From: Elusimicrobia bacterium RIFCSPLOWO2_12_FULL_59_9
Lineage (GTDB): Bacteria; Elusimicrobiota; Elusimicrobia; O2-12-FULL-59-9
Reading direction: 5' to 3'
Assembly (NCBI GenBank): GCA_001800185.1
Contig: MGUX01000066.1
Span: 1 to 50,369, forward strand
DNA: 50,369 bases
Shown: piece after piece, positions 4,621 through 21,394 of the stretch
How positions within the stretch are numbered: the stretch's first letter is position 1
Layout of the letters: the number at the start of each line of letters is the position of its first letter
Translations under genes and position numbers: made by a program
The notes under the pieces: generated by a model
Databases searched by the model: none
What the model was told of the DNA's origin: nothing
What the model saw: only the letters and a program-made list of their open reading frames with translations

Positions 4621-4632
4621 AATCTCTGCCGT

Positions 4633-7274: not shown

Positions 7275-8077
7275 CCCTCCCTCAAATAAATCACTTTCGG
7301 TTTTGTCCCAAGCTCCTCCAGGAACCTGTAAGCCCTGTGGCTGTCGGCAAGCCGGGAAACCTCGCTTTCTGGATTATTGAGATCCCCAAACGCGATGGCC
7401 TGGGCCGGACAGGCCGCCTTACAGGCAGGGACGTAGTCCCTTTCTTGGATCTCACGGCCCTCCTCCCGGGCCTTGTCCCTCGCTCTTTGAAGGCGCTGAT
7501 GACAGAACAGGCATTTCTCAACCACGCCTTTGTAACGGACTGAAACATCGGGGTTGAACGACTGGTTTGCTTCCGCGGGCCATTGGGGCTCGCCCCAATT
7601 GAAGAACTTGCAGGTGTAAGGGCAGGCATTGACGCAGTATCGGCAGCCGATGCAGCGGTCGTAAACTTGCCCCACAATCCCTTCCGTGTTCATGAACGTG
7701 GCCGACGTAGGACACACCCGGGTGCAAGGAGGGTCCTCGCACTGCTGGCAAGGCATGGGGATTAAACTCTGGCGGACATGGGAGCCCTCTCCTTCGGTCC
7801 TCGGAAGTATCTTCAGCCATCGGATGACTCTGCCCATGGCGGCTTCTTCGGGACTGCCCAGCATCTGGTTGTTTTCGACGGAACAGGCTACCACGCAACT
7901 CTGGCAACCCGTACAGCGATCCAGGTCGATCACCATGCCCCAGCGGTGCTTGCCCCGGGCCTGAACGATTTCCCCTTCGCTGCCGTCGGAGGCGAAGGCG
8001 CGTGGGACAAAAACCAGAAGCCCGCCGGCGAAAGCCGCCAGCCGCTTCAATAAATTTCTTCGATTCTCAGGCTCCAT
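7271..8077 (-). CDS. Tat-exported 4Fe-4S ferredoxin-type subunit (ActB2/PsrB/NrfC-like)
   Basis: 268 aa with the twin-arginine signal ENRRNLLKRLAAFAGG. Four Cys clusters are present: CTGCQSCVVAC, CQQCEDPPC, CIGCRYCVNACP and CLFC...CKAACP. Confidence 0.9.
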   Translation of the reverse strand: MEPENRRNLLKRLAAFAGGLLVFVPRAFASDGSEGEIVQARGKHRWGMVIDLDRCTGCQSCVVACSVENNQMLGSPEEAAMGRVIRWLKILPRTEGEGSHVRQSLIPMPCQQCEDPPCTRVCPTSATFMNTEGIVGQVYDRCIGCRYCVNACPYTCKFFNWGEPQWPAEANQSFNPDVSVRYKGVVEKCLFCHQRLQRARDKAREEGREIQERDYVPACKAACPAQAIAFGDLNNPESEVSRLADSHRAYRFLEELGTKPKVIYLREG

Positions 8078-10217
8078 AGACTCTCACCCAAGTGTCCTGC
8101 CAGAGCAGTTGGCCGGAGGGGTCCTGCCGCTTCTCAACGATCCTTGCCGGACTCGTTCCGATCCCCTGGGCATACCGGCCCATGGAGGTGTGACCCAAAC
8201 CCAGGGGAAGGGACACAGTATCCTGGCGCATGCCTTCATAATGCCGTGCCCGGGCCAAGATCTTGCCGGCGGGAGACTCAACCCATACCATCTGTCGATC
8301 CGAGATGCCAAGTCTTCTCGCGGCGGCAGGATGAATCTCAACCCACGTCTCCCACTGTTCGCCCAGATGTGCCCCCGCCAAGCTGTGCAGATACGGAAGA
8401 TGCGCGCCCTCTCCGAAGGAAAAGGCCAACGGGGTATGGACGTAAAGTCGCAGGGGAAAATTGGGATATTCATGCGCAAAGGGCTTTGGCTCAATATTTT
8501 TCGTCGAAAACCGGAGCTTCCTGGATTTTGTTTTAAGAGTTGACTTAATGTCGGCTTTCGCTGCCTCGTACTCCCACCAACCTCCTTCTCGCATCTGGCC
8601 CTCGGCCTGAGCTCTTTTGGCTGATTTTTCTAAGGCTTCCACGAAAGTGCTCCAAGGCAGCGCTTTGGAGACGGGCCCGCCCAGGGAATGGGCCAAGTTC
8701 AGGATGAAATCCCCGTGGTCTTCCGTATCGTAGAGCGGCCGGAGCACGGGAGGCGCGAAGCTGATCACGCCCTGTCCCAGAAGAGTTCTCGAAAAGCCGT
8801 ACTGCCAAGACTCCAGGCTGTGGTGGGGCGGAAGGACCAAGTCCGCCAGGCGGGATGATTCATCCAGATAGGGGGAGAAACTTGCGATGAACGGAATTTT
8901 CTCCAGAGCCTTTTCCCAAGAGATGGACTGAGGGGTCGAGAAAACAGGGTTGACCCGCTCCATCCAAAAGACCTCAATAGGACTTTTTGTGGAAGCCAGG
9001 ATGGCTTCCGGAACTTGGTGCAAGGACGGCGCCAGCGGAGGTTTTGGGGGCTCGGAGGAATAGGCGGCGGGCAAGGTGAGTTGGTACCTTTCCGCCTCGG
9101 TAGCCAGGACGCCGCGGCGGACCCCGATGGAGCCCAACAGCGCGTTGAGACTATGAACAGCCGTCTGGTTAAAAAGGCTGCCCCGATAGGTGATGGCGAG
9201 GGCCGGCTGGATGCGGGCCATCTCATGAGCCAACTCTGAAATCTTTTGAGTTTTGACGCTGGTAGCCTCGGCCACCTTTTGGGGAGAATATTCCTTAAGG
9301 ACCAGGGTCTTGAACTCCTCAAAACCCGATGTCCACTGGGAAACGAAGTTCCTGTCATAGAGGTTGTCTCGGACAAGCACGTGAGCGACTCCAAGCGCCA
9401 GGAGCCCTTCCGTATCGGGTCTTATGGAGATCCACTCGTCCGACTTGGCGGCCGTGGTTGAAAGTCTGGGCTCAACCTGGATGATCCGCACTCTCCTTTC
9501 AGGCCTGGCTCGGCGAAGCTCGCTGAAGGCCCTTTGAGCCTCGACCGGTGAAGGGAAGCTCTGCAGCCAGTCCCAGCCGAAAGACACGAGAAGGTTTGCG
9601 TTTTGTAGATCATAGAAGAGGCCCTCCGAAGAGCCGTGCATCATTTTGAAAGCGTCCAAAGGGGCCTCCGCCAACGGCCAGTTCCACTCCCAGAAGTTGG
9701 GCGTCCCGAAGAGCCGTGCAAAACGCTCTTGGATATCGTGCCTGATATCCCGGATGGGCGCCGCCAATACGGCCAACGCCTCCGGCGCATTGCGCCTTAA
9801 GAGGTCTGACAGCTTATCGTGGAGTATCTGATGCGCCTTACTCCAGGGGATTCTTTCCCACTGGCCGGAACCCCTTGGGCCCTTTTGGAGCAGGGGAAAA
9901 CGCAACCGGTCCGGATGGTAGAGGTCCTGAAGGATTGCTCCGCCCTTGGGGCAGTGCGTCCCGAGGCTTACGGGATGGCCGGACATCCCCGAGATTCCCA
10001 CAGCCTTGCCGTTCACGACGCGAACTTGAAGCATGCAGAGGGCCGGACAGAGTTTGCAGAGGGCGGGCTTGTAGGCCTCGGAGTCCAATTTGGGAAGAGG
10101 CTTTTCCTTGGGGGTCAACACCTTGGCTTTGAGGGCCTTGGGAAGGGCAAGCGCCGCGGTTAAAAAGCTTCCCCACTTCAAGAAGTTCTTTCTGGAAATT
10201 TCTATTTCCATAGACAT
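8067..10217 (-). CDS. Molybdopterin-oxidoreductase-like large subunit (ActB1/PsrA-like), Tat signal
   Basis: 716 aa with the signal SRKNFLKWGSFLTAALALP. The N-terminal FS0 motif CKLCPALC...HCPKG (C-x2-C-x3-C...C) is present. Whether a pterin cofactor is retained cannot be judged by eye. Confidence 0.85.
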   Translation of the reverse strand: MSMEIEISRKNFLKWGSFLTAALALPKALKAKVLTPKEKPLPKLDSEAYKPALCKLCPALCMLQVRVVNGKAVGISGMSGHPVSLGTHCPKGGAILQDLYHPDRLRFPLLQKGPRGSGQWERIPWSKAHQILHDKLSDLLRRNAPEALAVLAAPIRDIRHDIQERFARLFGTPNFWEWNWPLAEAPLDAFKMMHGSSEGLFYDLQNANLLVSFGWDWLQSFPSPVEAQRAFSELRRARPERRVRIIQVEPRLSTTAAKSDEWISIRPDTEGLLALGVAHVLVRDNLYDRNFVSQWTSGFEEFKTLVLKEYSPQKVAEATSVKTQKISELAHEMARIQPALAITYRGSLFNQTAVHSLNALLGSIGVRRGVLATEAERYQLTLPAAYSSEPPKPPLAPSLHQVPEAILASTKSPIEVFWMERVNPVFSTPQSISWEKALEKIPFIASFSPYLDESSRLADLVLPPHHSLESWQYGFSRTLLGQGVISFAPPVLRPLYDTEDHGDFILNLAHSLGGPVSKALPWSTFVEALEKSAKRAQAEGQMREGGWWEYEAAKADIKSTLKTKSRKLRFSTKNIEPKPFAHEYPNFPLRLYVHTPLAFSFGEGAHLPYLHSLAGAHLGEQWETWVEIHPAAARRLGISDRQMVWVESPAGKILARARHYEGMRQDTVSLPLGLGHTSMGRYAQGIGTSPARIVEKRQDPSGQLLWQDTWVRVYGA

Positions 10218-10234
10218 ATCTTCATTGACGGCGC

Positions 10235-10744
10235 CTACCTATGGCACGCCATACAATCCGTAGTTATTTTTTCGCGCCTATGGCAGGCCATGCATCCTTC
10301 CATTCGGAGAGGCACGGTCTGTCTCGCCACGGGCCTGTCCATCTTTCCGACATCCCCGTGGCAGACCTTGCAGTCCAGGCCGCCCGACCCCACATGGCGC
10401 TTGTGGGAGAACCGGACGTGCTGCGGAACCGTATAGACCTTTTTCCATGGGATTTCCCGCATCTGCCGGATGTATTCCTCCAAAGTTTTTGGGGTTTTGA
10501 GGCCGGGTTTGTCAGGTTGATGGCACAAGGCGCAGGTGGAGGTGTTCGGGATGCCGGCTTTCGCGGAGTCCTTAGCCCCCACGTGGCAGGCGTCGCAAGA
10601 GATACCGAAGTCCACGTGCTTTTTATGGGTGAAGGGCACTGGCTGTGAGACCTCCCACGTCCTGTATGCCGACAAACCTATCCCCGCAATTCCCGCAGCT
10701 ACGACCATCCAACCGAGCCAAGCGTGCAGCCACTCCCGCGGCAT
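10235..10744 (-). CDS. Membrane-anchored pentahaem cytochrome c (ACIII ActA-like, cytochrome c3/c7 family)
   Basis: 169 aa with one N-terminal TM helix. Five CxxCH motifs are present (CDACH, CALCH, CKVCH, CMACH, CMACH). It is a paralog of 25818-26318. Confidence 0.85.
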   Translation of the reverse strand: MPREWLHAWLGWMVVAAGIAGIGLSAYRTWEVSQPVPFTHKKHVDFGISCDACHVGAKDSAKAGIPNTSTCALCHQPDKPGLKTPKTLEEYIRQMREIPWKKVYTVPQHVRFSHKRHVGSGGLDCKVCHGDVGKMDRPVARQTVPLRMEGCMACHRREKITTDCMACHR

Positions 10745-10771
10745 CCAATCCTCCCCAAGCTACGCCGTTGC

Positions 10772-11677
10772 TTATCTGACCGACTCTACCGCTTTTTCCG
10801 CCTTTCCCGGACCGGAGCCCTTGGTTGGGGCAAACTCCTTGGCCAAGGATGTCAACCCCGTCATAGCCCCAAGGCCCATCGTCTCCACCGCGCTGGACGG
10901 CACTATCACCACCGTGGAGTTCTGCCGCATTCCTTCCAGGAGGATGTTCATGGCCCTCAGGTGCAGAGCCACGGGACTCTCTACGTACGAATTGGAGGCT
11001 TCCTTGAACTTATTGGCTACCTGGAGTTCCGATTCAGCCAGAATCACGCGCGCCTGGCGCTCCCGCTCCGCCTGAGCCTGCATGGACATGGCGTCTTGGA
11101 GCCCCACCGGGATTTTCACGTCCCGGATTTCCACAGAAAGCGCCTTAATGCCCCAGGCTTCCGTGCGCTCATCAATCATCTGGCAGAGCTTCGCGTCGAT
11201 CTTCCGCCGTCCGATCAGCATTTCAGAAAGATCCGTCTCTCCGATCATGTCTCGCAACGCCGTCTGGGACGACCAGGAGATCGCCTCCTTGTAGTTTTCA
11301 ACCTCCAAGGCCGCTTTCACCGGGTCCATAACCCTCCAAAAAAGCACCGCATCCACGTCCACGGGCACGCTGTCTTTGGTCAGGGTCTCCTCCGCGGTGA
11401 AGGGCGTCGTGATCGTCCTTAGGTCAATCCAATAGGGGATCGTATCGAAGAAAGGAAAGACTCCGAACAAGCCCGGCCCCCGCAAGCGGTGGAACCTGCC
11501 AAGCCTTAGCACCACAGCCTTCTGCCATTGACGGGCCACCCGCAGAGATATGACCCCGAAGAGTCCCGTGGCTGCTCCTATCAATGCTGCCAGCGGGGTG
11601 CCAAGCCAAGCGCTGACCAATCCTCCGGTGACCGCCAAAACAACGAACAGGCTTAGCGTCATTGGGTGAATACCCAT
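10772..11677 (-). CDS. SPFH/band-7 (stomatin/prohibitin-like) membrane scaffold protein
   Basis: It has N-terminal TM helices, then WQKAVVLRLGRF...VDVDAVLFWRV...AQAERERQARVILAE. I prefer the ATG at 11677 (MGIHPM), 9 nt after AGGAGG; the ORF track starts at 11686. It is about 80% identical by eye to 26356-27249. Confidence 0.9.
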   Translation of the reverse strand: MGIHPMTLSLFVVLAVTGGLVSAWLGTPLAALIGAATGLFGVISLRVARQWQKAVVLRLGRFHRLRGPGLFGVFPFFDTIPYWIDLRTITTPFTAEETLTKDSVPVDVDAVLFWRVMDPVKAALEVENYKEAISWSSQTALRDMIGETDLSEMLIGRRKIDAKLCQMIDERTEAWGIKALSVEIRDVKIPVGLQDAMSMQAQAERERQARVILAESELQVANKFKEASNSYVESPVALHLRAMNILLEGMRQNSTVVIVPSSAVETMGLGAMTGLTSLAKEFAPTKGSGPGKAEKAVESVR

Positions 11678-11697
11678 GTCATGCACCTCCTATTTTC

Positions 11698-12243
11698 TTA
11701 TTCATCGCGCGCTTCCTCCACATTCTGTCCTGCCGATTCCTTTGGCTCCTGGCTTTCCGTTGGCGATTTGAGACTAAAAAGATAGTGAGCCAAATCCTCA
11801 ATTTCTCCATCAGACGCCACGCCTTCCCAGGACGGCATGGCCAGGGGAGGCTCCAACTTGTCGTCATCCAACTTGGCAGGATGGGCGCCTTTGCGGATTT
11901 TGTCCTTCAGGTCCTTCCAAGTGAAGGCGTCGGCCAGGTCGTAAAGGTTCGGCACCATGCCTTCGGGGTCCGCGTTCGGATTTTTCACGCCACCCTGGCC
12001 GTCGGGTCCGTGGCAAACCCCGCAACGGAGCTCCCGAAAAAAATGGCGGCCTCGTTTTATAGGCGACTCTTCTTCGGATGAGCCAAGTTTTGCGGCGGAA
12101 CCGTCGAAAGTCTTTTCAGTGGCTGAAATGGCCCATAAGGGGCTCCACAATCTGGCCCGATATGCCAAAAACCCGTAGAAAGAGAAAAGTCCACCCCATA
12201 CGGAAGCCACAAGGATAATGAGATTGCGGGCTACGCTGTCCAT
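11698..12243 (-). CDS. Membrane-anchored monohaem class I cytochrome c
   Basis: 181 aa with an N-terminal TM helix (IILVASVWGGLFSFYGFLAY). It has a single CGVCHGPDGQG motif and a distal Met region (LAMPSW). Confidence 0.75.
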   Translation of the reverse strand: MDSVARNLIILVASVWGGLFSFYGFLAYRARLWSPLWAISATEKTFDGSAAKLGSSEEESPIKRGRHFFRELRCGVCHGPDGQGGVKNPNADPEGMVPNLYDLADAFTWKDLKDKIRKGAHPAKLDDDKLEPPLAMPSWEGVASDGEIEDLAHYLFSLKSPTESQEPKESAGQNVEEARDE

Positions 12244-12251
12244 GGCATTTT

Positions 12252-12680
12252 TTACTCAGCGCTTTCCTCTCCCGTTTTTTTGATCAGCTCCTTTTTGCGG
12301 ACCGAGGAATCGTACTTTAGGAATTCGATGATTTTGCCCGCGCTCTTGGCGTCAAGCCCGGAGCGCTTTTTCTTCCGCATTTTTCCGACATAGGGCTCCC
12401 ATTCTTGCGCCCCATAAGGGGCGTTGATGGGTCTGGCCAAAGTGTGGCATTTGGAACATTTCTTGGCGAAGGTTTTGTAATTGGCCTGCTGTTCTTGCGG
12501 ATAGTTGGAAACGTCAATGCTATCCGGGCCGCCGTCCCAGGGGAAGGTCTTCTCGGACGATGCTTCCGATGGCGATACGCCCGCGGGGGCTTCGCTTTTC
12601 TGGGCATAGAGATGCGCGTTTCCAATCCCCAAGGCCGCGCTGAGAACCGCCAAGCCCAAAGTGCGACTATTCATTTTCAT
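12252..12680 (-). CDS. Small periplasmic monohaem cytochrome c, family copy 1 of 3 in this window
   Basis: 142 aa with a Sec signal peptide. The conserved core YPQEQQANYKTFAKKCSKCHTLARPINAPY...FLKYDSSVRKK is shared with 20918-21394 and 33749-34303. Confidence 0.7.
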   Translation of the reverse strand: MKMNSRTLGLAVLSAALGIGNAHLYAQKSEAPAGVSPSEASSEKTFPWDGGPDSIDVSNYPQEQQANYKTFAKKCSKCHTLARPINAPYGAQEWEPYVGKMRKKKRSGLDAKSAGKIIEFLKYDSSVRKKELIKKTGEESAE

Positions 12681-12796
12681 GATGACTCCTAAATCGTGAC
12701 CGGCCCCGCGGAGCGGGCTTCTCCCTTTTCGGGATCGGGATGCGCGGATTGCGCACCGCGCCGGTCTTTATTAAGAACCGCTAATGCTCCGGCGGC

Positions 12797-14071
12797 TTAG
12801 AAACCGACCTCTACTTGAGCCGTCCAGCGGGTGTCCTTCGACTGCTTGGCGCCCCCCTGTTTATCAGAAAGCTCATCGTAGTATTCCACGAAGCCGCGGA
12901 CGTTCTCGGCGAGATAGCAGGATAAGTTTGCGAGGAAATGGTTCTTTTTCCTTGCGGCCTTGTCCTTGTTGGTGTCGAAACGCAGCAAAGGGACGATCCA
13001 AGGGCGGTCATCCTTTTTGATCGTGTAAAACGCCTCCAGGTAGCCCCCGCTGTTCTTCGAGTTCAAGACGCCGGTGGCCGCCACTTTGTTCTGGGCGTTG
13101 ACGATCGCTCCGCGGATATTGAGGTCCATGACTTCGACCAGGGCGTCCACGGCGTAGGCCGACATCTTATTGATCGACGTGCCCGTGGCATTTTTGCTCG
13201 TCAGATCGTCTTTTCCAGTTCTAAAGAAGGCGCCGACGGAAAGGCCCTTGAGCGTGTCGGCCACCAGCCTCAGATTATAGTTGGGCGGGCCGTAGCCCTC
13301 CTGGGCCTTGGTCGCCGCCGTTGTGGCGGCCTGCCCGCCTCCGAGTCCGACCGCATAGCTCAGGGCGCCCAGGCCCTCCTGGCTCGCCTCGCCCCGGACA
13401 GCCAGATATTGCTGATCCAGCATGAGCAATTCGCGGACGTCGCTGGCGCGCCTCGTAAAGCCGCTGTGGGCAAGAGTCTGGTAGGGGTCCACTTTGTGAA
13501 GAAAGTCCCCGAATCCGGCGATCACGTTGAAGTATGGGCTGGGATGGTAGCCCAGCGAAAGATCCGCGACCTCGGCCTCGAAGCCCGTTCCCCCGTCGTC
13601 CTCGGCCTCGATCTCCGTGAAGTAGGAGAAGTTCTTGGCCACGCTCCCATCGGCAACGAAAAGCTCCAACTCGTGGAGCGCCCGGTTCTGGGTTTTCCGG
13701 GTCTGCCCGCCGGACTTCTGTATGTCCAGGGGCCGGGCTTTGACGAACGCCCCCCAAGGGAACACGCTCGGAATGAACATGTCGCTTGCTTCGATTTTTG
13801 CGCCGGACTCTTTCTCTCTCTCCCGAACGAAGCCGTTGTTTTTGAATTCTCGGCCATAGTCGTTGAGCACGGGGAAAGCCGTGTGGCATTGAGAGCAGCT
13901 TATGCCGTATTTCCGCGCGAAGACCGGCACCGCCCCGGCCTGGCGGACGCCGCCCGGCCGCACCGGGCACAACCTTAACATCCTTTGGCTTAGAGGCGGC
14001 ACCAGCCACGAGCTGAACAGCACCCCCAAGACCGCCGCTGCGATGAGCGGGCCTTTTCTGATTTTCATCAT
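12797..14071 (-). CDS. Cyc2-like fused monohaem cytochrome c / outer-membrane beta-barrel porin (candidate metal oxidase)
   Basis: The start is set at the ATG at 14071 (MMKIRKG), preceded by GGAGG, giving 424 aa. It has a signal peptide and a single N-terminal haem motif, FARKYGISCSQCHTAFPVLNDYGREFKNNGF. About 330 aa of alternating amphipathic strands follow, ending in the OMP-type C-terminus VEVGF. Confidence 0.65.
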   Translation of the reverse strand: MMKIRKGPLIAAAVLGVLFSSWLVPPLSQRMLRLCPVRPGGVRQAGAVPVFARKYGISCSQCHTAFPVLNDYGREFKNNGFVREREKESGAKIEASDMFIPSVFPWGAFVKARPLDIQKSGGQTRKTQNRALHELELFVADGSVAKNFSYFTEIEAEDDGGTGFEAEVADLSLGYHPSPYFNVIAGFGDFLHKVDPYQTLAHSGFTRRASDVRELLMLDQQYLAVRGEASQEGLGALSYAVGLGGGQAATTAATKAQEGYGPPNYNLRLVADTLKGLSVGAFFRTGKDDLTSKNATGTSINKMSAYAVDALVEVMDLNIRGAIVNAQNKVAATGVLNSKNSGGYLEAFYTIKKDDRPWIVPLLRFDTNKDKAARKKNHFLANLSCYLAENVRGFVEYYDELSDKQGGAKQSKDTRWTAQVEVGF

Positions 14072-14114
14072 GTGTTTCCTCCAGATCACGAACCTTGCGC
14101 TTCCCCCCTCTAAA

Positions 14115-14130
14115 GGCAACACATTGGCCA
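14115..14130 (-). promoter_or_regulatory. Sigma54 promoter P2 for the cyc2-like/ACIII-like operon
   Basis: The minus strand reads TGGCCAATGTGTTGCC. It lies 44 nt upstream of the ATG at 14071 and about 90 nt downstream of the response-regulator stop. Confidence 0.6.
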
Positions 14131-14218
14131 GGAATTTTTTGCCTCTGGCCGCGATAAAACGGATTTAACAGGCAAATGCTTCCAATTTCTTGGAAAGAGG
14201 TTTTAAGTTGTTGAAAAC

Positions 14219-15580
14219 CTAGCGGAAGGACTGGGGGTTGATTTGGTGCTTCTTGAGATACCAGTAGAGGTTGCTCAGGGGAAGTCTTGCCGTTTCTGCG
14301 GTGGTCTTGACGTTGCCGCCGTGCTTCTTGAGGAGGGATTCCAGGTACTCTTTCTCAAAACTTGCCCTCAAGGAGAAAAAGTTCTCCGTCCCCTTTTCCA
14401 TGCCGTTGGAGTTTGTCACCAAGAACTCCGGAAGATCCGTGGCTTTGAGGGTGTCTCCTTCGCAAACGACCACGGACTTTCTAAGGACGTTCTGGAGTTC
14501 CCGGATGTTTCCGGGCCAGCTATAATGCGCCAGAATCTCAACGGCCGAGTCATCCAGCCGCGTAACCGGCCGGCGCATTTCTTTGGCGATTTTGGGAAGG
14601 TAGTGCTGCGCCAGAAGGGAAACATCCTCAGCCCTCTCCCGAAGCGGGGGGAGGCGGAGGGAGATGACGTTGAGCCGGTAAAAGAGATCCTCCCGGAATC
14701 TGCCCGCCTTGATTTCTTGCTCGATATCCTTGTTGGTGGCCGTGACGATGCGGACATCGACCGAACGGATTTCGGCGCCGCCGACCCGGCGAAACTGCTT
14801 CTCCTGAAGCGCCCTCAGAAGCTTGGCCTGAAGGGAGCCGGGAAGTTCGCAGACCTCATCCAGAAAGAATGTGCCGCCATCGGCGAGTTCCATGAGCCCC
14901 TGAGCGGCCCGGGATGCGTCCGTGTAAGCGCCCTTTTCATGGCCAAAAAATTCGTTCTCAAGCAGATTTTCAGGAATCGCCCCGCAATCCACGGGGATGA
15001 AGCGGCCCCGCCTGCCGGAACGAAGATGCAGCCGCCGGGCGATCAGTTCCTTGCCGGTCCCGGACTCGCCCAAAATCAAAACATCCGCAGGAGTCGCGGC
15101 CACCCTGTCCGCCATATCCAAAACCCTGAGGATGGCCGGGCTCCGGCCGATGACCTCCACGGGCGCATATTCTCTGGACACATGGCGGGCCAAGAGCCGG
15201 TTCTCCTCCCCAAGTTGTTTCTCCCGCAAGGCGCGGCGGATCTTTGAGGCAAAATCCTCCGGGTGAAAGGGCTTAAGAAGATAATCCAAGGCTCCAGCCC
15301 GCAAAGCCTCCAGGGCCGAATCCAACTCCGGGAAGGCGGTGATCAAAAGAACGGGGAAAGCCGGGTCCATCTCCTTGGCGGCTTTCAGGAGCTCTATGCC
15401 GCTTAGTTTCGGCATCTTGATGTCCGTGACGAGCAGATCGAAGTTCTGCGCTTTGAGCTTTTCGAGAGCAACGGGCGAGCGATTCTCCAAAAACACCTGA
15501 TAGCCGTCCTTGGAAAGGGCGGCCGCGCAGGTGGACAACATGTCAGGCTCGTCGTCTACGATCAGCACTTTATATTTCAT
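14219..15580 (-). CDS. Sigma54-dependent response regulator (NtrC family bacterial enhancer-binding protein)
   Basis: 453 aa. It has a receiver domain (VLIVDDEPDM...TDIKMP). The AAA+ domain carries Walker A GESGTGKE and the sigma54-contact loop GHEKGAYTDA (a GAFTGA variant). A C-terminal HTH is also present. Confidence 0.95.
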   Translation of the reverse strand: MKYKVLIVDDEPDMLSTCAAALSKDGYQVFLENRSPVALEKLKAQNFDLLVTDIKMPKLSGIELLKAAKEMDPAFPVLLITAFPELDSALEALRAGALDYLLKPFHPEDFASKIRRALREKQLGEENRLLARHVSREYAPVEVIGRSPAILRVLDMADRVAATPADVLILGESGTGKELIARRLHLRSGRRGRFIPVDCGAIPENLLENEFFGHEKGAYTDASRAAQGLMELADGGTFFLDEVCELPGSLQAKLLRALQEKQFRRVGGAEIRSVDVRIVTATNKDIEQEIKAGRFREDLFYRLNVISLRLPPLRERAEDVSLLAQHYLPKIAKEMRRPVTRLDDSAVEILAHYSWPGNIRELQNVLRKSVVVCEGDTLKATDLPEFLVTNSNGMEKGTENFFSLRASFEKEYLESLLKKHGGNVKTTAETARLPLSNLYWYLKKHQINPQSFR

Positions 15581-17127
15581 GGCTTAATCGCTGTCCTCCA
15601 AGGAAACCGGACGCGGAAGCAGCTTCCCTTTCCGCGAGCGCTTTCGACCTTGATTTCCCCGCCGAGGGATCGGACGAGGGCCAGGCTGATGGAAAGGCCC
15701 AGGCCCGTGCCTTGCTCATGGGACTTCGTCGTGTAGAAGGGATCAAAGATCTTGTCCAGAAACTCCTCGGAAATTCCCGGGCCGGTGTCCGCGATGCTCG
15801 CTGATATCCACCCATCCGCGAGATGGCTCTCGACCTTGAGCGCACCCCCCCGCGGCATGGCATCGATGGCGTTGTTGAGGATATTTAGAAAGACATGCAG
15901 CAGGTCATTGCGCCGCGATTCGATTTTGGGCAGGTCTTCCGCCAAGGTCTCTTCCATGATGATGCCGGCCCGTGAAACTCGTCCCGACAAGATGTAAAGA
16001 GCCTCGGAAAGCACATCATTGAAGTCCGTGGGGGATTTTGGCTGGAGGTGGGGTTTGGAGAGGCTGAGCAGACTTCGGACGACGTTTCCCACGCGATCCG
16101 CCTGCCGGTCCACGATCTCCAGGGTTTCCTTGAGGAACTCCGGCGCCGCATATTCAGCGGCCCCCGACCGCGCCAGCTTCATGCGGGTGGAGATGATCCC
16201 GATGGGGTTATTGACCTCATGGGCGATATAGGCCACGAGTTGCCCCAGCGCGCCGAACTTTTCAGCCTGAAGGAGCCGCTGGTTGCTGGCGCGAAGACGC
16301 TCCATGATGGTCGTGGTAAAAAAGGTCGAGCCGCCCAGCAGGATTAAAAATGTGCCGGTCGTGCCCAACACGAACGGCAACTGATGAGACGCATGAGCGG
16401 CTTGCGCGCCATGCCCCTCATGGGGAAAAATAGCCAGGGTATAGTGGGGCAAGAGCCGGAAATACTCTCCGAAAGCGGCGAAAAGGAAGAACGCGGCGAT
16501 CAGCGCCGAGACCAGGTAGGCGTCTCTCTTGGGCAGGAGTATTCCCGCAATGATGACGTGGAATATATAGATGACAAAGAGGGGATTTTCGAGTCCCCCG
16601 GAGAAATGAAGCAGATGCGTGAGGATAACAAGGTCGGTGAGGATGAGCCACAGCATGCAGGACCGGAAGTTCCCGAACTCATTCTTCGTCCAATGGAAGA
16701 CCAGGCTTGTCAACCAGAGCGCCATGCATCCCATCCACAGATACGGCGTCACGGCGTCCGGAAGGAGGCGCAGCACGTGCTGCGAGACGAATATCGCGGC
16801 GGTCGTAACGGCGGCGACGATCCAGCGCATGCTGAGAAACCAGGCGATCTGCTCGCCGATCCCTTCCGAACCGACCAGAACGCCGACGTCTTGAGAGAAC
16901 AATCGTTGTGTCCGGCGGTTCAACCACCAAGCCGCTGCGAAGGTCCCAACAAGAGTGGCGCTGATTCCTCTTAAGATGTGGAGCCGGTGAAGCGTCTCCA
17001 TCTCCGCGCCTGGCAGCCCAAAGCGCTCGAGCAGTTCATAACCGCCGAATATCACGAGGATGACGGTGGCGATGATAGCTGGAAGCTGCCATCTGTCGTT
17101 AACGGCTGGTTCAACCATGTGTTCCAT
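15577..17127 (-). CDS. Sensor histidine kinase with a polytopic membrane sensor domain
   Basis: It has a HisKA H-box (IAHEVNNPIG) and HATPase N and G boxes (LNNAIDAM, GTGLGLSI), plus about 8 N-terminal TM helices. The start is set at ATG 17127 (MEHMVEP) because the ORF-track start at 17259 lies upstream of the sigma54 promoter. It overlaps the regulator start by 4 nt. Confidence 0.9.
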   Translation of the reverse strand: MEHMVEPAVNDRWQLPAIIATVILVIFGGYELLERFGLPGAEMETLHRLHILRGISATLVGTFAAAWWLNRRTQRLFSQDVGVLVGSEGIGEQIAWFLSMRWIVAAVTTAAIFVSQHVLRLLPDAVTPYLWMGCMALWLTSLVFHWTKNEFGNFRSCMLWLILTDLVILTHLLHFSGGLENPLFVIYIFHVIIAGILLPKRDAYLVSALIAAFFLFAAFGEYFRLLPHYTLAIFPHEGHGAQAAHASHQLPFVLGTTGTFLILLGGSTFFTTTIMERLRASNQRLLQAEKFGALGQLVAYIAHEVNNPIGIISTRMKLARSGAAEYAAPEFLKETLEIVDRQADRVGNVVRSLLSLSKPHLQPKSPTDFNDVLSEALYILSGRVSRAGIIMEETLAEDLPKIESRRNDLLHVFLNILNNAIDAMPRGGALKVESHLADGWISASIADTGPGISEEFLDKIFDPFYTTKSHEQGTGLGLSISLALVRSLGGEIKVESARGKGSCFRVRFPWRTAIKP

Positions 17128-17155
17128 CGCATTTAGCGAACGGCGAGGGGGTTGG

Positions 17156-17171
17156 TGCAACGAAATTGCCA
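17156..17171 (-). promoter_or_regulatory. Sigma54 promoter P3 for the kinase/regulator operon
   Basis: The minus strand reads TGGCAATTTCGTTGCA, identical to P1. It lies 29 nt upstream of the ATG at 17127. Confidence 0.7.
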
Positions 17172-17273
17172 TATAGGGGAAAGTGTTCGAGTGGTCCAGT
17201 GGTCGAGTGGTAGAGTGGTCCATTACGGCGGCATGGCTGCCGCTCCGTGATCGGATCATGGAGCGTTGCGGGA
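17156..17273 (-). repeat. Copy B of the shared promoter-upstream module
   Basis: It contains four tandem AGTGGTC-N octamers (17185-17216 region). The near-palindrome CTCCGTGATCGGATCATGGAG is at 17243-17263. It aligns with 5764-5905. Confidence 0.8.
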
Positions 17274-17283
17274 AAAGCAGCGC

Positions 17284-18561
17284 TCAAGCCGCGTCCCGGA
17301 AGTTTCCATGCCACACAGTCTTCGACTCAATATTCATGGCGGCAGACTCGCGCGGTGTAAGCTGCCCGGTCAGCACCGGGATGGTCATCTTCAGCAATAT
17401 AGTATAGAGCAGCATCCCGAAGCCCCATATCCCGGCGCAAATCAGCCATTCGTTGAGGGTCGGGAAGTACTCGACTATCTCGCCCAGGGGGCTGGGGATG
17501 AAGGCCGGGATAACCATGCCCATCCCCTTCTCGATCCAAATGCCCACGATGGCCAGCACACAAGCCAAGCTCAGGTATCTTAGACGGCGCGAGAACGGCA
17601 GCACCAGCAGGATGAGGGCCGCCGAATCGAGAACCATGGCTGTCCATATCCAAGGCACGAGGCCGTAGTGGCCGTGGAGGCCGAAGAATAAGTACTTGGC
17701 CGAGGCCACATGGGCTGAGTCGGTATAGAATTCCTTAAAAAGCTCGCAAAGCAAGAGGAAGACATTGATGATCATCGAGACCTGAACGATGTCCCGGAGC
17801 ATGAAGAGCGCCTTGTCAGTGACCTTGTAGGAGGACAGGCGGCGGATGACTTGCAAGGTCAGAATGAGGAAGCCCGGTCCGGCCGTGAAGGCCGAGGCCA
17901 AGAAACGCGGGGCCACGATGGCTGAGTTCCAGAAAGGCCGCCCCCCCAGGCCGACATAGAGAAATGCCGTCACGGTATGGATGCTGATAGCCCAGAACAT
18001 GGCGATGAAAACGAAGGGGATGTACCAGATTTTGGCCGGCTTGCGCTTGAGATACACCATATAGACCAAGTAGCCGGAGATTTGGACGTTCAGGGCCAGG
18101 TAGCCGTTGAGGACGATGACGTCCCAGCTCAGCATGGAGATGGGCCAATTAAACTTGCCGATCCCCGGAATCATATGCCAGAACCGGTCCGGGCGGCCCA
18201 GGTCCGCGGTGACGAAGAGCAGGCACATAACGATGACCGCCACGGCCAAGAGCTCGCCGAATATGACCACGTCGTGCAGCGTCTCGTCTTTGTAGACATA
18301 GACCGGCACCACCAGCATCACCGCGGCCGCCGCCATCCCCACAAGGAAGGTGAAGTTGGCGATATAGAGTCCCCAGGAGACCTGGTCGCTCATGCCGGTG
18401 ACGGTGAGGCCGGCGACGAGCTGCTTGCAGTAGGCGTTGAGCCCCAGAAGGGACACGGCTGTCAGTGCCGTCATCCATAGGTAGTAACGCCAATCCCCGT
18501 CGAGGGTCTTGCGGGCGCAGCGCCCGACGAATACCGCGTAGTCCTTGATGGCTTGGGTCAT
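17284..18561 (-). CDS. NrfD/PsrC-family membrane subunit (DsrP/HmeB/ActF-like)
   Basis: 425 aa with about 10 TM helices. The N-terminal pattern GLTVTGMSDQVSWGLYIANFTFLVG matches the NrfD-type first helices. It follows its FeS partner after a 2-nt gap. Confidence 0.85.
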   Translation of the reverse strand: MTQAIKDYAVFVGRCARKTLDGDWRYYLWMTALTAVSLLGLNAYCKQLVAGLTVTGMSDQVSWGLYIANFTFLVGMAAAAVMLVVPVYVYKDETLHDVVIFGELLAVAVIVMCLLFVTADLGRPDRFWHMIPGIGKFNWPISMLSWDVIVLNGYLALNVQISGYLVYMVYLKRKPAKIWYIPFVFIAMFWAISIHTVTAFLYVGLGGRPFWNSAIVAPRFLASAFTAGPGFLILTLQVIRRLSSYKVTDKALFMLRDIVQVSMIINVFLLLCELFKEFYTDSAHVASAKYLFFGLHGHYGLVPWIWTAMVLDSAALILLVLPFSRRLRYLSLACVLAIVGIWIEKGMGMVIPAFIPSPLGEIVEYFPTLNEWLICAGIWGFGMLLYTILLKMTIPVLTGQLTPRESAAMNIESKTVWHGNFRDAA

Positions 18562-18563
18562 GG

Positions 18564-19493
18564 TTAGAGGTTGAAGTAGTAGTAGAACCGGGGTAAAGTG
18601 CCGACCTCCTCCTTAAGGACATACACCCTTTTAGTTTTGATGATGTTGGCGATCTCGCTGTCGGGATCGAGAAGGTTGCCGAACTTGCGCGAGCCTGTGG
18701 GACAGACTTCGACGCAGGCCGGGTACTTGCCCTTTCGGGTGCGGTGCAGGCAGAAGTGGCACTTCTCCACGACGCCCTTTGGACGCGGCCGGTTGGAGAG
18801 GTAACCCATCTCCGGATTAAGTTCGTCTTTGGGGATCTCGGGCTTCTCAAAGTTGAAGCGCCGCGCCCCGTAGGGGCAGGCGGCCATGCAATAGCGGCAG
18901 CCGATGCACCAGTTGTAGTCGATGACCACGATGCCGTCGGGCTCCTGCCAGGTGGCCTGCACGGGGCAGGCCTTCACGCAGGGCGCCTTGCGGCACTGGT
19001 GGCACTGCACCGGCATGTAATAGAAGCCGTCCTTGGGGACCTCGCCCTCGTAGTCGGTCTTGGCGCTCTCCACGTCGATGGAACCCTTGCGCATCTGCAG
19101 GACACGGATGTATTGGATCTGAGGATTGCGCGACTGGTTGTTCTCCTTGGCGCAGGCGTACACGCACTTGCGGCAGCCGATACAGCGGCCGATGTTGAGG
19201 GCGTAGCCGAACTCGACGCCGGGAATGGGAGGAGGGTCGGTGACATTGGGGCGCACGCCGTAGTCCTTCTCGACCTGCGCGGCGATCCGTTCGAGAATGG
19301 CCTTCTTGTCCTCAGGGGTGAGCTCCTTGTAGTGCAGGCGGAGGAATTCCTCCAAAGTCGGCAGATCGACGACGTCTTTGAGGGGGGACAAGGCGGCCGC
19401 CGTGGCCGTCACGGCGCTGGTGGTCAACGCGGCCAGGAAGGCCCGACGAGAGATCTCATTGGCCGGTTCGCCCGGCTTGCGTTCCTCAGACAT
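18564..19493 (-). CDS. Tat-exported 4Fe-4S cluster protein (NrfC/DsrO/HmeA-like)
   Basis: 309 aa with the signal ISRRAFLAALTTSAVTATAAA. Cluster motifs are CIGCRKCVYAC, CHQCRKAPC, CIGCRYCMAACP and CHFC...CVEVCP. Confidence 0.9.
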   Translation of the reverse strand: MSEERKPGEPANEISRRAFLAALTTSAVTATAAALSPLKDVVDLPTLEEFLRLHYKELTPEDKKAILERIAAQVEKDYGVRPNVTDPPPIPGVEFGYALNIGRCIGCRKCVYACAKENNQSRNPQIQYIRVLQMRKGSIDVESAKTDYEGEVPKDGFYYMPVQCHQCRKAPCVKACPVQATWQEPDGIVVIDYNWCIGCRYCMAACPYGARRFNFEKPEIPKDELNPEMGYLSNRPRPKGVVEKCHFCLHRTRKGKYPACVEVCPTGSRKFGNLLDPDSEIANIIKTKRVYVLKEEVGTLPRFYYYFNL

Positions 19494-20134
19494 CAGTCGA
19501 GTCCTCCGTGGTTTTCGGCGCCGGCTGTCTTGCCGCCCTTAGCGCGTGTGCGCGGGTTGATATGGGGCGGCGGAGCGGCCTTCAGGGGCTTGAAGATGGG
19601 CCAGTGCGGGTTGTGGCAGGCGATGCAGACCTGAGTCTTGAGGGGGCCCTTAGCAGTGTCCCAAAAGCCGCTGCGCCGTCCATGGATGCCCAGGCCCCAG
19701 TCACGGTAGATCGTGCCGTGGCACTTCGCGCAGAGCAGTTGGATATTGTCGAGCTTGATGGGGCTGCCGTCGAAATTGGAGAAGTCCGCCGGCTGCATGC
19801 GGTGGTGGCAGTTGAAACAGTGCTGGTTGCGGCCGTGCTTAAGCTCAATGTGTTCATGGAAAATCCCCTTCTCATGGGGATTTCCCTGGAGCGGTTCGGC
19901 GCCCTCGTGGCAGGCCTGGCATGGAGCGCCATCGAAGGTCATCTCCGTGCGGACTTTGCGCACGGTGGAGGGGTCGGCGTATTCCGGGGATAGCTTGGGA
20001 ATGTCGTCGCGGCCCGGTCCTTTGCCGATGAGGTCCTTCGTGAAGACCACGGCCAGAGCGAGCAGGCAGGCGACGGCCGCGCCGGCGGCCGCCAAAGGAA
20101 TTCTCTTCGAGCCTTCGTCACGGTCCAAGGTCAT
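19493..20134 (-). CDS. Membrane-anchored tetrahaem cytochrome c (c3 family)
   Basis: 213 aa with an N-terminal TM helix. Four CxxCH motifs are present (CQACH, CFNCH, CAKCH, CIACH). Confidence 0.8.
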   Translation of the reverse strand: MTLDRDEGSKRIPLAAAGAAVACLLALAVVFTKDLIGKGPGRDDIPKLSPEYADPSTVRKVRTEMTFDGAPCQACHEGAEPLQGNPHEKGIFHEHIELKHGRNQHCFNCHHRMQPADFSNFDGSPIKLDNIQLLCAKCHGTIYRDWGLGIHGRRSGFWDTAKGPLKTQVCIACHNPHWPIFKPLKAAPPPHINPRTRAKGGKTAGAENHGGLD

Positions 20135-20917: not shown

Positions 20918-21394
20918 TTAATCGGGGTTTGGAGGTCTTGATTGGTTTGCGAACAAATCTTTGAGTTTTTCCTGCTGAGCCTGGAATTCGCCCTGCTTTA
21001 AGATTTTCCTGACCTTGGAATCGTAGGTGAGAAAGTCCATGATCCTTTCCTCATCCGCCTTGCTCAATTCGATTCCGCGGCCTTTCATCTTGAGATGCAT
21101 CCTGCGCACATAGCGCTTCCAGACGTCCGCCTCCATGTACGGAGAGTTCAGGGGACGCGCCGTCGTATGGCAGGAGCCGCAGACGCCCAGGAAGAACCGG
21201 TAATTCGCCTTCTGATTCTCGGGGTAGCCGGACACGTCCACGGTGGGGGAGCCCAGGTCGTAGTAAAACGGCGGGACGGCCTTTGCGGAGGCAGCCGGGT
21301 TCTTCGGCGAGGGGGATTCTTCTTTTCCGCCGCAGGCCGCCAAGGAGAGCCCCGCAAGAAGGAGGACGATGAGGCCCGACGTTCGTATCCTCAT
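20918..21394 (-). CDS. Small monohaem cytochrome c lipoprotein, family copy 2 (ActE-like position)
   Basis: The ORF track extends to 21637, but ATG 21394 overlaps the upstream stop (ATGA). That start gives MRIRTSGLIVLLLAGLSLAAC with the lipobox LAAC. The core is YPENQKANYRFFLGVCGSCHTTARPLNSPY...FLTYDSKVRK. Confidence 0.75.
   Translation of the reverse strand: MRIRTSGLIVLLLAGLSLAACGGKEESPSPKNPAASAKAVPPFYYDLGSPTVDVSGYPENQKANYRFFLGVCGSCHTTARPLNSPYMEADVWKRYVRRMHLKMKGRGIELSKADEERIMDFLTYDSKVRKILKQGEFQAQQEKLKDLFANQSRPPNPD

Follow-up and report, generated by a model that had tools for sequence, protein, structure and literature searches.

How an electron could travel between the cell surface and the quinone pool of the inner membrane is the question raised by a row of eight genes in an uncultured member of the Elusimicrobia. 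For iron-oxidizing bacteria, the route from Fe(II) at the outer membrane to the quinone pool is still a model based on gene co-occurrence, and the role of alternative complex III (ACIII) in it is disputed, having been proposed initially as a component of the conduit (PMC5566968) and later considered dispensable in Zetaproteobacteria (PMC7029218). We examined positions 1 to 50,369 of contig MGUX01000066.1 (assembly GCA_001800185.1, forward strand) from Elusimicrobia bacterium RIFCSPLOWO2_12_FULL_59_9; this entire stretch of 50,369 nucleotides (nt) is referred to below as the window. The source metagenome-assembled genome (MAG) comes from groundwater of the Rifle aquifer. On the minus strand of the window, a gene whose predicted product belongs to the Cyc2 family of cytochrome-porins is followed by genes for two monoheme cytochromes c, an SPFH protein, and four subunits of an inner-membrane complex related to ACIII (Table 1). 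As far as function can be inferred from genes, this single conserved row appears to spell out a complete path for electrons, in one direction or the other, linking the cell surface with the inner membrane.

The published definition of Cyc2 allowed us to assess the first gene of the row. According to Keffer et al. 2021 (PMC8406198), members of the family have a signal peptide, one CXXCH, an upstream AXPXFAR[Q/K][T/Y] motif that is termed unique to Cyc2, a downstream PXL, a length of at least 365 amino acids (aa), and a 16-strand porin domain resembling OprO/OprP. The 424-aa product of the cyc2-like gene agrees with every one of the sequence criteria, because it reads AVPVFARKY-GIS-CSQCH-TAF-PVL. 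The AVPVFARKY stretch (aa 47-55) lies three residues ahead of the first cysteine, CSQCH (aa 59-63) is the sole CxxCH of the protein, and PVL begins at the fourth residue past His63. The original prediction had proposed a Cyc2-type iron oxidase, and its particulars were recovered: the single CSQCH lies within FARKYGISCSQCHTAFPVLNDYGREFKNNGF, the protein terminates in AQVEVGF, as expected from the claimed C-terminal VEVGF, and the claimed signal peptide is recognizable as a basic N-terminus, a hydrophobic helix (aa 6-28), and a signal-peptidase-type site between AGA and VP.

Homologs carry the same signature. A first search recovered 53 proteins, which range from 386 to 512 aa; the nearer ones belong to Elusimicrobia MAGs. 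All 53 have exactly one CxxCH, at the same position, followed three residues past its His by P-x-L or P-N-R; A-x-P-x-[FY]-[AS]-R-x-x, with identical three-residue spacing to the CxxCH, is found in 52, and a C-terminal Phe in 50. In an alignment of 26 sequences, the invariant positions were A47, P49, R53, C59, C62, H63, P67, G73, F76, G80, and four barrel residues. A profile search with no word filter enlarged the family to 5,597 clusters (50% identity) at E ≤ 1e-3 and 2,979 at E ≤ 1e-10, with alignments spanning the whole profile. Among the 146 top profile hits examined, 144 have a single CxxCH, and the other two are N-terminally truncated. Loss of the CxxCH among homologs, or best homologs that are ordinary porins with no link to cytochromes, had been named in advance as observations that would speak against a Cyc2; the first was not seen in either set, and the second is contradicted by the Cyc2 motif of all but one of the 53 homologs; Chlorobiaceae proteins are among the homologs.

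The fold predicted for the protein points in the same direction; failure to predict a closed barrel was the third observation named in advance as counter-evidence, and the model did not refute the proposal. Structure prediction had been proposed as the check for a 16-strand barrel, and in the AlphaFold2 model that we built on the alignment (mean pLDDT 75.4, pTM 0.71), DSSP assigned 16 long strands to aa 106-423, preceded by short helices around the heme motif. The top Foldseek matches in the PDB were exclusively 16-stranded porins, namely OmpT, OmpU, Omp32, OmpF, and PorB, with E-values down to 2e-12, 340-410 aligned columns, and a TM-score of up to 0.68 normalized to the target. OprP (2o4v), the template named by Keffer et al., ranked 30 in the list, and no Cyc2 structure was among the PDB entries. 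Sequence searches yielded zero Pfam or NCBIfam matches for the 424-aa protein, and a PDB sequence search returned an alginate lyase as its sole match (E = 0.06), which we took as chance. By the published sequence criteria, the protein is a member of the Cyc2 family, and it is best explained as an outer-membrane porin of 16 strands that carries a small monoheme c domain at its N-terminus.

Compared with known Cyc2 proteins (Cyc2PV-1 of Mariprofundus ferrooxydans, Cyc2 of Acidithiobacillus ferrooxidans, and Cyt572 of Leptospirillum), the window protein has the same succession of leader, AXPXFAR[K][Y], CxxCH, and PXL, a similar length of about 420 aa, a predicted 16-strand porin, and a C-terminal aromatic residue. 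Unlike them, it belongs to an Elusimicrobia-centered clade, carries a leader of about 47 aa with a PP...CPVRP insert, and is encoded alongside an ACIII-like complex. Full-length relatives with 31-35% identity occur beyond the Elusimicrobia, in MAGs of Thermodesulfovibrionales, Candidatus Tenderia, and Acidiferrobacterales. Two weak matches that cover the N-terminal part only (P0046 and P0049) fall in clusters that include Chlorobiaceae MAG proteins, and since the Cyc2 of Chlorobi belong to Cluster 1 of the literature (PMC8406198, PMC7029218), the window protein is linked to canonical Cyc2 directly, if remotely. The Cyc2 of Tenderia electrophaga is placed outside Cluster 1 in Fig. S7 of Keffer et al. 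(PMC8406198), and the window protein probably also lies outside this cluster, in the heterogeneous part of the tree. The accessible parts of the Keffer and McAllister supplements name neither Elusimicrobia nor the source MAG.

The start of the protein, which is 100% identical to hypothetical protein A3G41_00345 of the source MAG, deserves a comment. The open reading frame (ORF) spans 12797-14122 on the minus strand and would encode 441 aa if started at GTG. The 424-aa version starts at the ATG at 14071, with GGAGG before it at 14078-14082. Met31 was considered as an alternative start and rejected, as it would leave no hydrophobic signal; the ATG at 14071 was preferred because the GGAGG-ATG arrangement gives a standard n-region and h-region. 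The resulting leader of about 47 aa is unusually long, as is its c-region of about 20 aa. Its A/V-x-A site directly precedes VPxFARKY, as in Cyc2 proteins with short leaders, which suggests cleavage between AGA and VP. A W[LV]xPP...[LYQ]CP[VM]RPxG stretch following the hydrophobic helix is conserved in, and specific to, the clade, and CPxR is kept also in remoter long-leader relatives. In the AlphaFold2 model, pLDDT falls below 50 at aa 34-49. The Cys-Pro dipeptide of the leader resembles a heme-regulatory motif, a speculative comparison.

The genes downstream of the cyc2-like gene are all present in the order originally listed. The successive gaps in the eight-gene row are 116, 8, 11, 27, 17, -11, and -4 nt, so that the short gaps or overlaps that had been described hold for six of the junctions (-11 to 27 nt) and not for the first. 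That 116-nt gap (12690-12796, minus strand) contains two GC-rich hairpins, gcgcggtgcgcaatccgcgc and gcccgctccgcggggc, neither followed by a U-tract; they may influence RNA stability or act as a partial attenuator, thereby setting how much porin is made relative to its partners. A scan for intrinsic terminators found no convincing minus-strand terminator within the operon, and spacing together with synteny suggests that all eight genes are co-transcribed. Pfam and PDB searches with the 142-aa cytochrome gave no match, and the 181-aa cytochrome shows a weak PDB similarity to the heme domain of CcoP alone; neither gave a match to ActE in the PDB.

The same order, namely cyc2-like, cytochrome c, cytochrome c, SPFH, ActA, B1, B2, and ActC, was found at four other loci, labeled L004 to L007, each on a different Elusimicrobia contig. 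The full row is present at L004 (Cyc2-like gene P0003, 69% identity to the window Cyc2), at L005 (P0009, 46%), where a second NrfD gene follows the actC-like gene, and at L006 (P0014, 42%). At L007, whose Cyc2-like gene came from a genome scan (45%), the contig ends after the molybdopterin (B1) gene, and at a further locus, L008, it ends after the second cytochrome. Across L004-L007 the partner proteins are 55-83% identical to those of the window, compared with 42-69% for Cyc2; porins are usually less conserved than partner proteins. The SPFH protein, 77-79% identical at these four loci and always in the same position, is a constant companion in the Elusimicrobia loci. The better conservation of the partners suggests that the gene set is held together by selection. 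One Elusimicrobia MAG, JACQJP01, has two cyc2-like genes on separate contigs, one in the full operon of L005 and the other at L014.

The small monoheme cytochrome of the operon is one of three paralogs in the window that are 39-41% identical and share the core YP..Q..Y..F...C..CHT.ARP.N.P, none with a Pfam or PDB match. Besides the copy in the cyc2 operon (12252-12680, minus strand), one with a lipobox lies at about 20918-21400 (minus strand), after a second ACIII-like module, and another with a lipobox lies at 33740-34303 (plus strand), ahead of an MtrA-like gene and with its own sigma54 element at 33688. Together, these proteins look like a shared family of periplasmic shuttles.

The last four genes of the row encode a putative inner-membrane complex, which we compared with ACIII (6f0k, 6btm, 6lod, 8k9e) and with QrcABCD, the menaquinone reductase of sulfate reducers reported by Venceslau in 2010. 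The original prediction regarded the four as homologs of ActA, ActB1, ActB2, and ActC. This is clear for ActA, a membrane-anchored pentaheme cytochrome, for ActB2, and for the NrfD-type ActC, which aligns with 6f0k_C over aa 40-446 and with 6lod_C, 6btm_C, and 8k9e_C at E-values of 1e-65 to 1e-70. The B1 subunit, in contrast, is nearer to ArrA (E = 2.8e-51) and PsrA (E = 1.2e-36) than to ActB1; its matches to ActB reach just ~1e-9 to 1e-13 over ~100 residues. The label "ACIII-like" is therefore fair but loose. Instead of a fused ActB, there are two genes overlapping by 11 nt, a split known from Qrc, and no gene for ActD, ActE, or ActF occurs within 5916-14071.

The sequence of B1 sheds light on what this subunit may do. 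In the alignment, the Mo-ligand Cys of ArrA and PsrA is replaced by Leu in the window B1 and its orthologs and by Lys in its paralog, and the neighboring residue is not conserved; a molybdopterin-like subunit lacking the Mo-coordinating residue is also a feature of Qrc. The FS0 motif C-x2-C-x3-C-x27-C is conserved, and all three molybdopterin Pfam domains are retained. B1 would thus most likely be a cofactor-less scaffold like QrcB and ActB1, though less degenerate. A catalytic molybdoenzyme, suggested by the best matches ArrA and PsrA, was rejected as the principal interpretation of B1, as the Mo-ligand Cys is missing in all orthologs. The Tat leaders of B1 and B2 imply that both are placed in the periplasm. 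The leader of the window B1, SRKNFLKW, is an R-K variant of the twin-arginine motif, and its orthologs and paralog read SRRN[LF][LF]K.

Overall, the complex shares features with both reference systems. Like ACIII, it has ActA-, ActB2-, and ActC-type subunits, and its redox subunits would face the periplasm; unlike ACIII, it has separate B1 and B2 genes, lacks ActD, ActE, and ActF in the operon, and is always accompanied by the SPFH gene. It resembles QrcABCD in the order cytochrome, molybdopterin-like subunit, FeS subunit, and NrfD protein, in having the B and C subunits as separate proteins, and in that QrcB and QrcC are the best NCBIfam models for B1 and B2. It differs from QrcABCD in its membrane subunit, which is of the ActC and not the QrcD type, and in its cytochrome, which has five hemes, whereas QrcA has six. 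All four subunits score below the equivalog cut-offs of the Qrc models (in bits, 88 of 180 for QrcA, 300 of 440 for QrcB, 275 of 400 for QrcC, and 45 of 570 for QrcD). Judged by its sequences, the complex is a predicted four-subunit relative of ACIII and Qrc and a strict member of neither. The two relatives operate in different directions: ACIII is a quinol:cytochrome c oxidoreductase (PMC8552683), and Qrc transfers electrons from cytochrome c to menaquinone, as inward flow in the present operon would need (Duarte 2018, PMC6303296).

Homologs of B1 are widespread and generically annotated, occurring in Elusimicrobia, Coatesbacteria, Aminicenantes, Rokubacteria, Chloroflexota, and others. At one remote locus, L087, a sigma54 activator and a cytochrome c accompany an ActA-B1-B2-NrfD row, with neither SPFH nor Cyc2; a 420-aa neighbor there is a polytopic membrane protein and not a Cyc2. 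The window itself holds a second SPFH-ActA-B1-B2-ActC module, whose proteins are 74% (SPFH), 42% (B1), 63% (B2), and 49% (NrfD, that is, ActC) identical to those of the cyc2 operon. Its ActA-like gene (~25,800-26,300) encodes five CxxCH, and its B1 (23771-25813, minus strand) keeps the four-Cys FS0 motif and has Lys in place of the Mo-ligand Cys.

Control of the operon by sigma54, proposed in the original prediction from a promoter beside the activator gene, has support at the sequence level. A predicted promoter of the GG-N10-GC type precedes the cyc2-like gene, next to the gene for a protein with a sigma54-activation domain, and the -24/-12 element is kept ahead of the cyc2-like genes of L007 and L002. 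Across the window we counted 10 matches to the sigma54 element, compared with 2.8 ± 1.65 expected, a number reached in 0 of 100 shuffles. ORF maps place eight of the 10 just upstream of, and pointing to, genes of a redox island: the cyc2-like gene, resB, the histidine kinase gene, the second SPFH/ACIII-like module, a Rieske/cytochrome b unit, a small-cytochrome paralog, the MtrA-like gene, and feoB. Taken as a whole, the island thus resembles a sigma54 regulon.

The regulatory genes are likewise conserved. In L004, L005, and L007, the cyc2-like gene follows orthologs of the response regulator (60-69% identity) and histidine kinase, and rpoN accompanies the regulators in L005 and stands at the margin of L002. 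L006 and L008 differ, having an OmpR-type system and an AT-rich region upstream of the cyc2-like gene. For the histidine kinase in the window, which has a sigma54 promoter to itself at 17157-17171, a start downstream of that element, close to 17127, is probably the real one. Between the activator gene and the cyc2 promoter lies a perfect palindrome, TTCCAA-N4-TTGGAA, and L007 has the same palindrome, TTCCAAGAGTTTGGAA, at the equivalent place upstream of its cyc2-like ortholog. The palindrome was not found at the other sigma54 promoters of the window, and loose matches were at chance level (3 versus 2.3 expected); it may therefore be specific to the cyc2 promoter, for which it is a plausible activator site.

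A second sigma54 promoter, TGGCAATTTCGTTGC, separates the actC-like gene from resB and marks the end of the eight-gene unit. Beyond it, genes at 1647-5738 (minus strand) encode ResB and CcsB (System II cytochrome c maturation), the glutamyl-tRNA reductase HemA, and a radical SAM/SPASM protein; ResB and CcsA genes also stand beside the cyc2-like operon in L005 and L006. The minus strand of the window carries two copies of a promoter cassette about 145 nt long, one at 5765-5905 ahead of resB and one at 17157-17273 ahead of the histidine kinase gene. Both copies contain the identical TGGCAATTTCGTTGC, 8-nt tandem repeats (GGTCGAGT/GGTCCAGT on the plus strand), and a 44-nt block that is 98% identical.

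We favor an interpretation in which this sigma54-dependent operon, headed by Cyc2, would let Fe(II) or another soluble donor feed the quinone pool, and we give it about an even chance of being correct. The adjoining two-component system would switch on the operon, with the cyc2-like gene first. Dissolved Fe2+, or another soluble one-electron donor, would enter the barrel and be oxidized at the heme, from which the electron would hop to the 142-aa periplasmic cytochrome and pass on to the anchored cytochrome, the ActA hemes, or both. The FeS chain of B2 would carry it to the quinone site of ActC, where quinone reduction would be paid for by the proton-motive force, as in the "uphill" branch of the standard iron-oxidizer model, and the SPFH protein would act as scaffold of the complex. 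In this route we infer the partners of each cytochrome, the substrate, and the direction of flow. Inward flow is favored because of the published model of neutrophilic iron oxidizers, in which electrons pass from Fe2+ through Cyc2 and a periplasmic cytochrome c to an oxidase or uphill via bc1 or ACIII to quinone (PMC5566968; PMC7029218), and because Qrc runs from cytochrome c to menaquinone. The MtrB/PioB, MtrA-like, FeoB, and DtxR-FeoA genes in the same window provide supporting context.

Several observations weigh against this interpretation. ActC-type complexes are known as quinol oxidizers, and the membrane subunit is far nearer to ActC (E = 4.5e-73) than to the quinone-reducing QrcD (45 bits); inward flow therefore demands the opposite of this activity. 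For the Fe oxidation of Zetaproteobacteria, ACIII was deemed unnecessary (PMC7029218). The window Cyc2 shares only about 20% identity with its Chlorobiaceae (Cluster 1-type) counterparts, with BLAST covering the N-terminal 40-70 aa alone; its named relatives (Tenderia) fall outside Cluster 1, and the function of the divergent Cluster 3 is called "most uncertain" by Keffer et al. (PMC8406198). Linkage is also limited. At L002 and L003 (33% Cyc2 identity), the ACIII-like genes and copies of both cytochromes lie 7 kb off; at L001 (35%), a cytochrome c alone adjoins the cyc2-like gene, and the ACIII-like module is unlinked; and in most of L010-L086, Cyc2 and the ACIII-like module are unlinked. In the genome scan of 80 loci, the sole ACIII-like cluster within 10 kb outside the Elusimicrobia was that of a deltaproteobacterial MAG (L026). 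Judging by this pattern across loci, the single-row fusion characterizes one Elusimicrobia clade and does not extend to Cyc2 generally. The metabolic context is a further difficulty. In Table S3 of Meheust et al. 2020, the source MAG (78% complete) scores ACIII 0, complex III 1, and periplasmic NxrA 1; O2 reductases of every type, complex I, and complex II are scored as absent. The ACIII score of 0 implies that the two ACIII-like modules of the window were unrecognized by the DMSO-reductase-tree approach of that study. The pyruvate:ferredoxin oxidoreductase (PFOR) and Hdr/MvhD-like genes of the window are typical of anaerobes and bear on the direction of electrons. Together with the missing O2 reductase and complexes I and II, they leave neither a terminal acceptor nor a need for reverse flow evident.

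Much of this evidence would fit electrons flowing outward, with the ACIII-like complex oxidizing quinol, the cytochromes becoming reduced, and the Cyc2-like porin exporting electrons in anaerobic respiration. We regard this as unlikely, yet as a serious rival, because of the ActC type of the membrane subunit, the scores of Meheust et al., the anaerobe-type genes, and the parts of the island that could serve export or uptake. The acceptor would be soluble and extracellular, for example chelated Fe(III), Mn(III), or humics. The canonical activity of ACIII is quinol oxidation (PMC8552683), and no oxidase was detected in the MAG (Meheust et al.), although the incompleteness of the MAG makes a missing oxidase weak evidence. 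The exporter-type parts comprise an MtrA/MtrB-like pair, a NapC/NirT (CymA-like) cytochrome, and a fusion of multiheme and b-type cytochrome, but MtoAB/PioAB with CymA-like genes occur in iron oxidizers too (PMC10654088). Cyc2 homologs are also found in organisms not known as iron oxidizers, and Geobacter sp. FRC-32 has been used as a Cyc2 query (PMC7029218). Against export stand the Cyc2 tested so far (A. ferrooxidans, Leptospirillum Cyt572, and Cyc2PV-1), which are all Fe(II) oxidases (PMC8406198), and the heme buried in a narrow barrel, which suits dissolved Fe2+, Fe(III) being poorly soluble at neutral pH. A further serious rival, though a quite improbable one, is a hub in place of a linear wire, with both ends in their customary direction: the Cyc2-like porin (Fe2+) and the ACIII-like complex (quinol) would feed the same small cytochromes, and these a terminal reductase whose gene lies outside the operon, for instance an oxidase or an Nxr/Nar-type enzyme of the periplasm. 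In that case the operon would group the donors of one cytochrome c pool, with no transfer from Cyc2 to quinone. ACIII would work in its canonical and Cyc2 in its tested direction, the three paralogs of the 142-aa cytochrome stand beside three different modules, as a shared shuttle family would, the MAG is positive for a periplasmic NxrA-type enzyme (Meheust et al.), and the rus operon of A. ferrooxidans likewise pairs cyc2 with the downhill branch (PMC5566968). Nevertheless, neither the operon nor the 50-kb window encodes a terminal reductase, and a tight eight-gene order is easier to explain by physical or serial partnership.

Two further explanations concern single proteins of the row. If the 716-aa subunit were catalytically active as a molybdoenzyme, the product of the operon would be a periplasmic enzyme of the Psr/Phs/Arr type, either a reductase or an oxidase, with the Cyc2-like protein supplying or removing electrons or admitting substrate. 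Its closest PDB matches are indeed the catalytic subunits ArrA and PsrA, and the FS0 cysteines and molybdopterin domains are kept; nonetheless, we consider this very improbable, given the Leu or Lys in place of the Mo-ligand Cys in the window B1, its orthologs, and its paralog, the cofactor-less QrcB as best family model (300 bits), and the homologs of ActA, ActB2, and ActC as partners. Least credible of all is that the CxxCH of the first protein is incidental and the protein just an ordinary porin, or that the adjacency of the genes is functionally meaningless. The empty Pfam, NCBIfam, and PDB sequence searches and the resemblance of the barrel to general porins would suit it, whereas the CxxCH and its flanking motif are invariant across hundreds of homologs, the genes keep their order at loci where Cyc2 identity is down to 42-69%, and cytochrome c maturation genes (ResB and CcsB) are linked in the window, L005, and L006. 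Inward flow remains the interpretation that we favor. Its most specific form, a sigma54-switched conduit from Cyc2 through the small cytochrome c family to an SPFH-scaffolded ACIII/Qrc hybrid acting as a cytochrome c:quinone reductase, is tentative, and we would sooner expect it to fail than to hold in full.

Viewed at large, the window is a single electron-transfer and iron island; its components noted along 17284-40671 are listed in Table 1 with the features discussed above.

Table 1. Predicted features of the window, with positions in nt, strand, and the evidence on which each assignment is based
Feature	Position	Strand	Basis
Cyc2-family fused monoheme cytochrome-porin, 424 aa	12797-14071	-	ORF, homologs, AlphaFold2 model, motif
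Leader of the Cyc2-like protein, aa 1-47	13931-14071	-	Basic N-terminus, hydrophobic helix aa 6-28, conserved PP...LCPVRPGG, signal-peptidase-type site between AGA and VP
Cyc2 signature AVPVFARKY-GIS-CSQCH-TAF-PVL, aa 47-69, single heme c attachment site	13865-13933	-	Alignment, motif definition in PMC8406198
Predicted 16-strand beta-barrel, aa 106-423, C-terminal Phe	12803-13756	-	DSSP on AlphaFold2 model, Foldseek
Periplasmic monoheme cytochrome c, 142 aa, signal peptide, CSKCH	12252-12680	-	Conserved synteny
Membrane-anchored monoheme class I cytochrome c, 181 aa, CGVCH	11698-12243	-	Pfam Cytochrom_C E 5.6e-10; helix aa 4-27
SPFH/Band_7 membrane protein, 304 aa	10772-11686	-	Pfam Band_7 E 2e-34
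ActA-like pentaheme cytochrome, N-terminal transmembrane anchor, 169 aa	10235-10744	-	Five CxxCH; 8k9e_A E 2e-23, 6f0k_A E 2e-22
Molybdopterin-like B1/QrcB-like subunit, 716 aa, Tat-type leader SRKNFLKW	8067-10217	-	QrcB 300 bits; ArrA, PsrA matches
4Fe-4S ActB2/QrcC-like subunit, 268 aa, twin-arginine leader RRNLLK	7271-8077	-	ActB C-terminal: 6f0k_B E 1.1e-58, 6lod_B E 9e-54
ActC-like NrfD-family quinone-interacting subunit, 452 aa	5916-7274	-	6f0k_C E 4.5e-73; eight hydrophobic segments
Sigma54 -24/-12 promoter element TGGCCAATGTGTTGC	14116-14130	-	TGGC-N7-TTGC; 45 nt ahead of ATG
Perfect palindrome TTCCAA-N4-TTGGAA, candidate upstream activating sequence for the adjoining activator	14180-14195	.	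Only exact match in the window
Sigma54-dependent response regulator (enhancer-binding protein)	14219-15580	-	Response_reg, Sigma54_activat E 4e-65, AAA_lid_14
Sensor histidine kinase, polytopic PilS-like membrane domain	15577-17259	-	HisKA, HATPase_c, weak 6TM_PilS match
Second sigma54 promoter TGGCAATTTCGTTGC, between actC-like gene and resB	5765-5779	-	Marks end of eight-gene unit
Cytochrome c maturation unit: ResB	4633-5738	-	Pfam/NCBIfam
Cytochrome c maturation unit: CcsB	3832-4620	-	Pfam/NCBIfam
Cytochrome c maturation unit: HemA	2745-3839	-	
Further multiheme/FeS/NrfD set	17284-20910		
Second SPFH-ActA-B1-B2-ActC module	21391-27249	-	Own sigma54 element 27305-27319
Cytochrome b C-terminus fused to three cytochromes c	27332-28570		
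Cytochrome b	28574-29248		
Rieske protein	29245-29736		
Another multiheme cytochrome	30107-31228		
NapC/NirT cytochrome	31235-31795		
Multiheme and b561 fusion	31792-33633		
MtrA/PioA-like multiheme cytochrome	34383-35348		
MtrB/PioB porin	35358-37541		E 1.7e-111
Triple cytochrome c, three 291-nt tandem repeats	37557-38537		
FeoB	38692-40671		
DtxR-FeoA fusion (hemerythrin also present)	40662-41384		
PFOR subunits	41982-44302	+	
HdrA-like flavoprotein with MvhD/FlpD domain, 1188 aa	44835-48401	+	
HdrB/C-like CCG-domain FeS protein	48290-49603	+	

Parts of this picture are already known, namely the Cyc2 motif, its predicted fold, the presence of Cyc2 in an Elusimicrobiota MAG, and the model that connects Cyc2 to ACIII. 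A Cyc2-like gene was reported in an Elusimicrobiota MAG from acid mine drainage, suggesting Fe(II) oxidation (Grettenberger and Hamilton 2021, PMC8357290). That report concerns the same phylum and makes the same kind of claim. Unlike here, the assignment was by BLAST and tree, the lineage was GWA2-66-18, and the accessible part of the paper makes no mention of an operon, ACIII-like partners, or regulation. Similarly, the co-occurrence of Cyc2 and ACIII in microaerophilic iron oxidizers has been published together with a model linking them (PMC5566968). In Zetaproteobacteria, ACIII is patchy and poorly expressed (PMC7029218), and in Manganitrophus, Cyc2 and the ACIII-like terminal-oxidase clusters do not form one operon (PMC9040806). 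The closest operon for comparison is rus of A. ferrooxidans (cyc2-cyc1-orf-coxBACD-rus), which likewise has cyc2 first, followed by periplasmic carriers and an inner-membrane complex. Its partner is an aa3 oxidase on the downhill branch, and its carriers include rusticyanin (PMC5566968), whereas the window operon has a quinone-interacting ACIII-like partner and a sigma54-dependent promoter.

Within the accessible literature, we found no account of physical linkage between cyc2 and the genes of an ACIII-type complex. PMC12442345 and PMC10654088 contain nothing on Elusimicrobia, ACIII linkage, or the direction of Cyc2, and the main survey of the phylum (Meheust et al. 2020) makes no mention of iron, porins, or multiheme cytochromes. 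The new elements are the architecture of the operon, the minimal ACIII/Qrc hybrid associated with SPFH, and the predicted sigma54 control, and the Cyc2 is a new member of its clade. The small cytochrome c family, the SPFH partner of the complex, and the Cys-Pro-containing Cyc2 leader also appear to be undescribed.

Although the Cyc2-like protein itself would be no surprise to a specialist, the operon offers a concrete and testable wiring for a debated step of iron oxidation. The conserved row is a defined set of eight genes for reconstitution, and it comes with a regulator and a promoter whose inducer can be sought. With it, the reach of Cyc2-based metabolism in Elusimicrobia, previously one acid-mine-drainage MAG, grows to include a groundwater clade. 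If the inward route is true, the operon would be the first operon-level genetic evidence of Cyc2 wired to an ACIII-type complex for reverse electron flow, and an uncultured, probably anaerobic lineage of Elusimicrobia would be an iron oxidizer.

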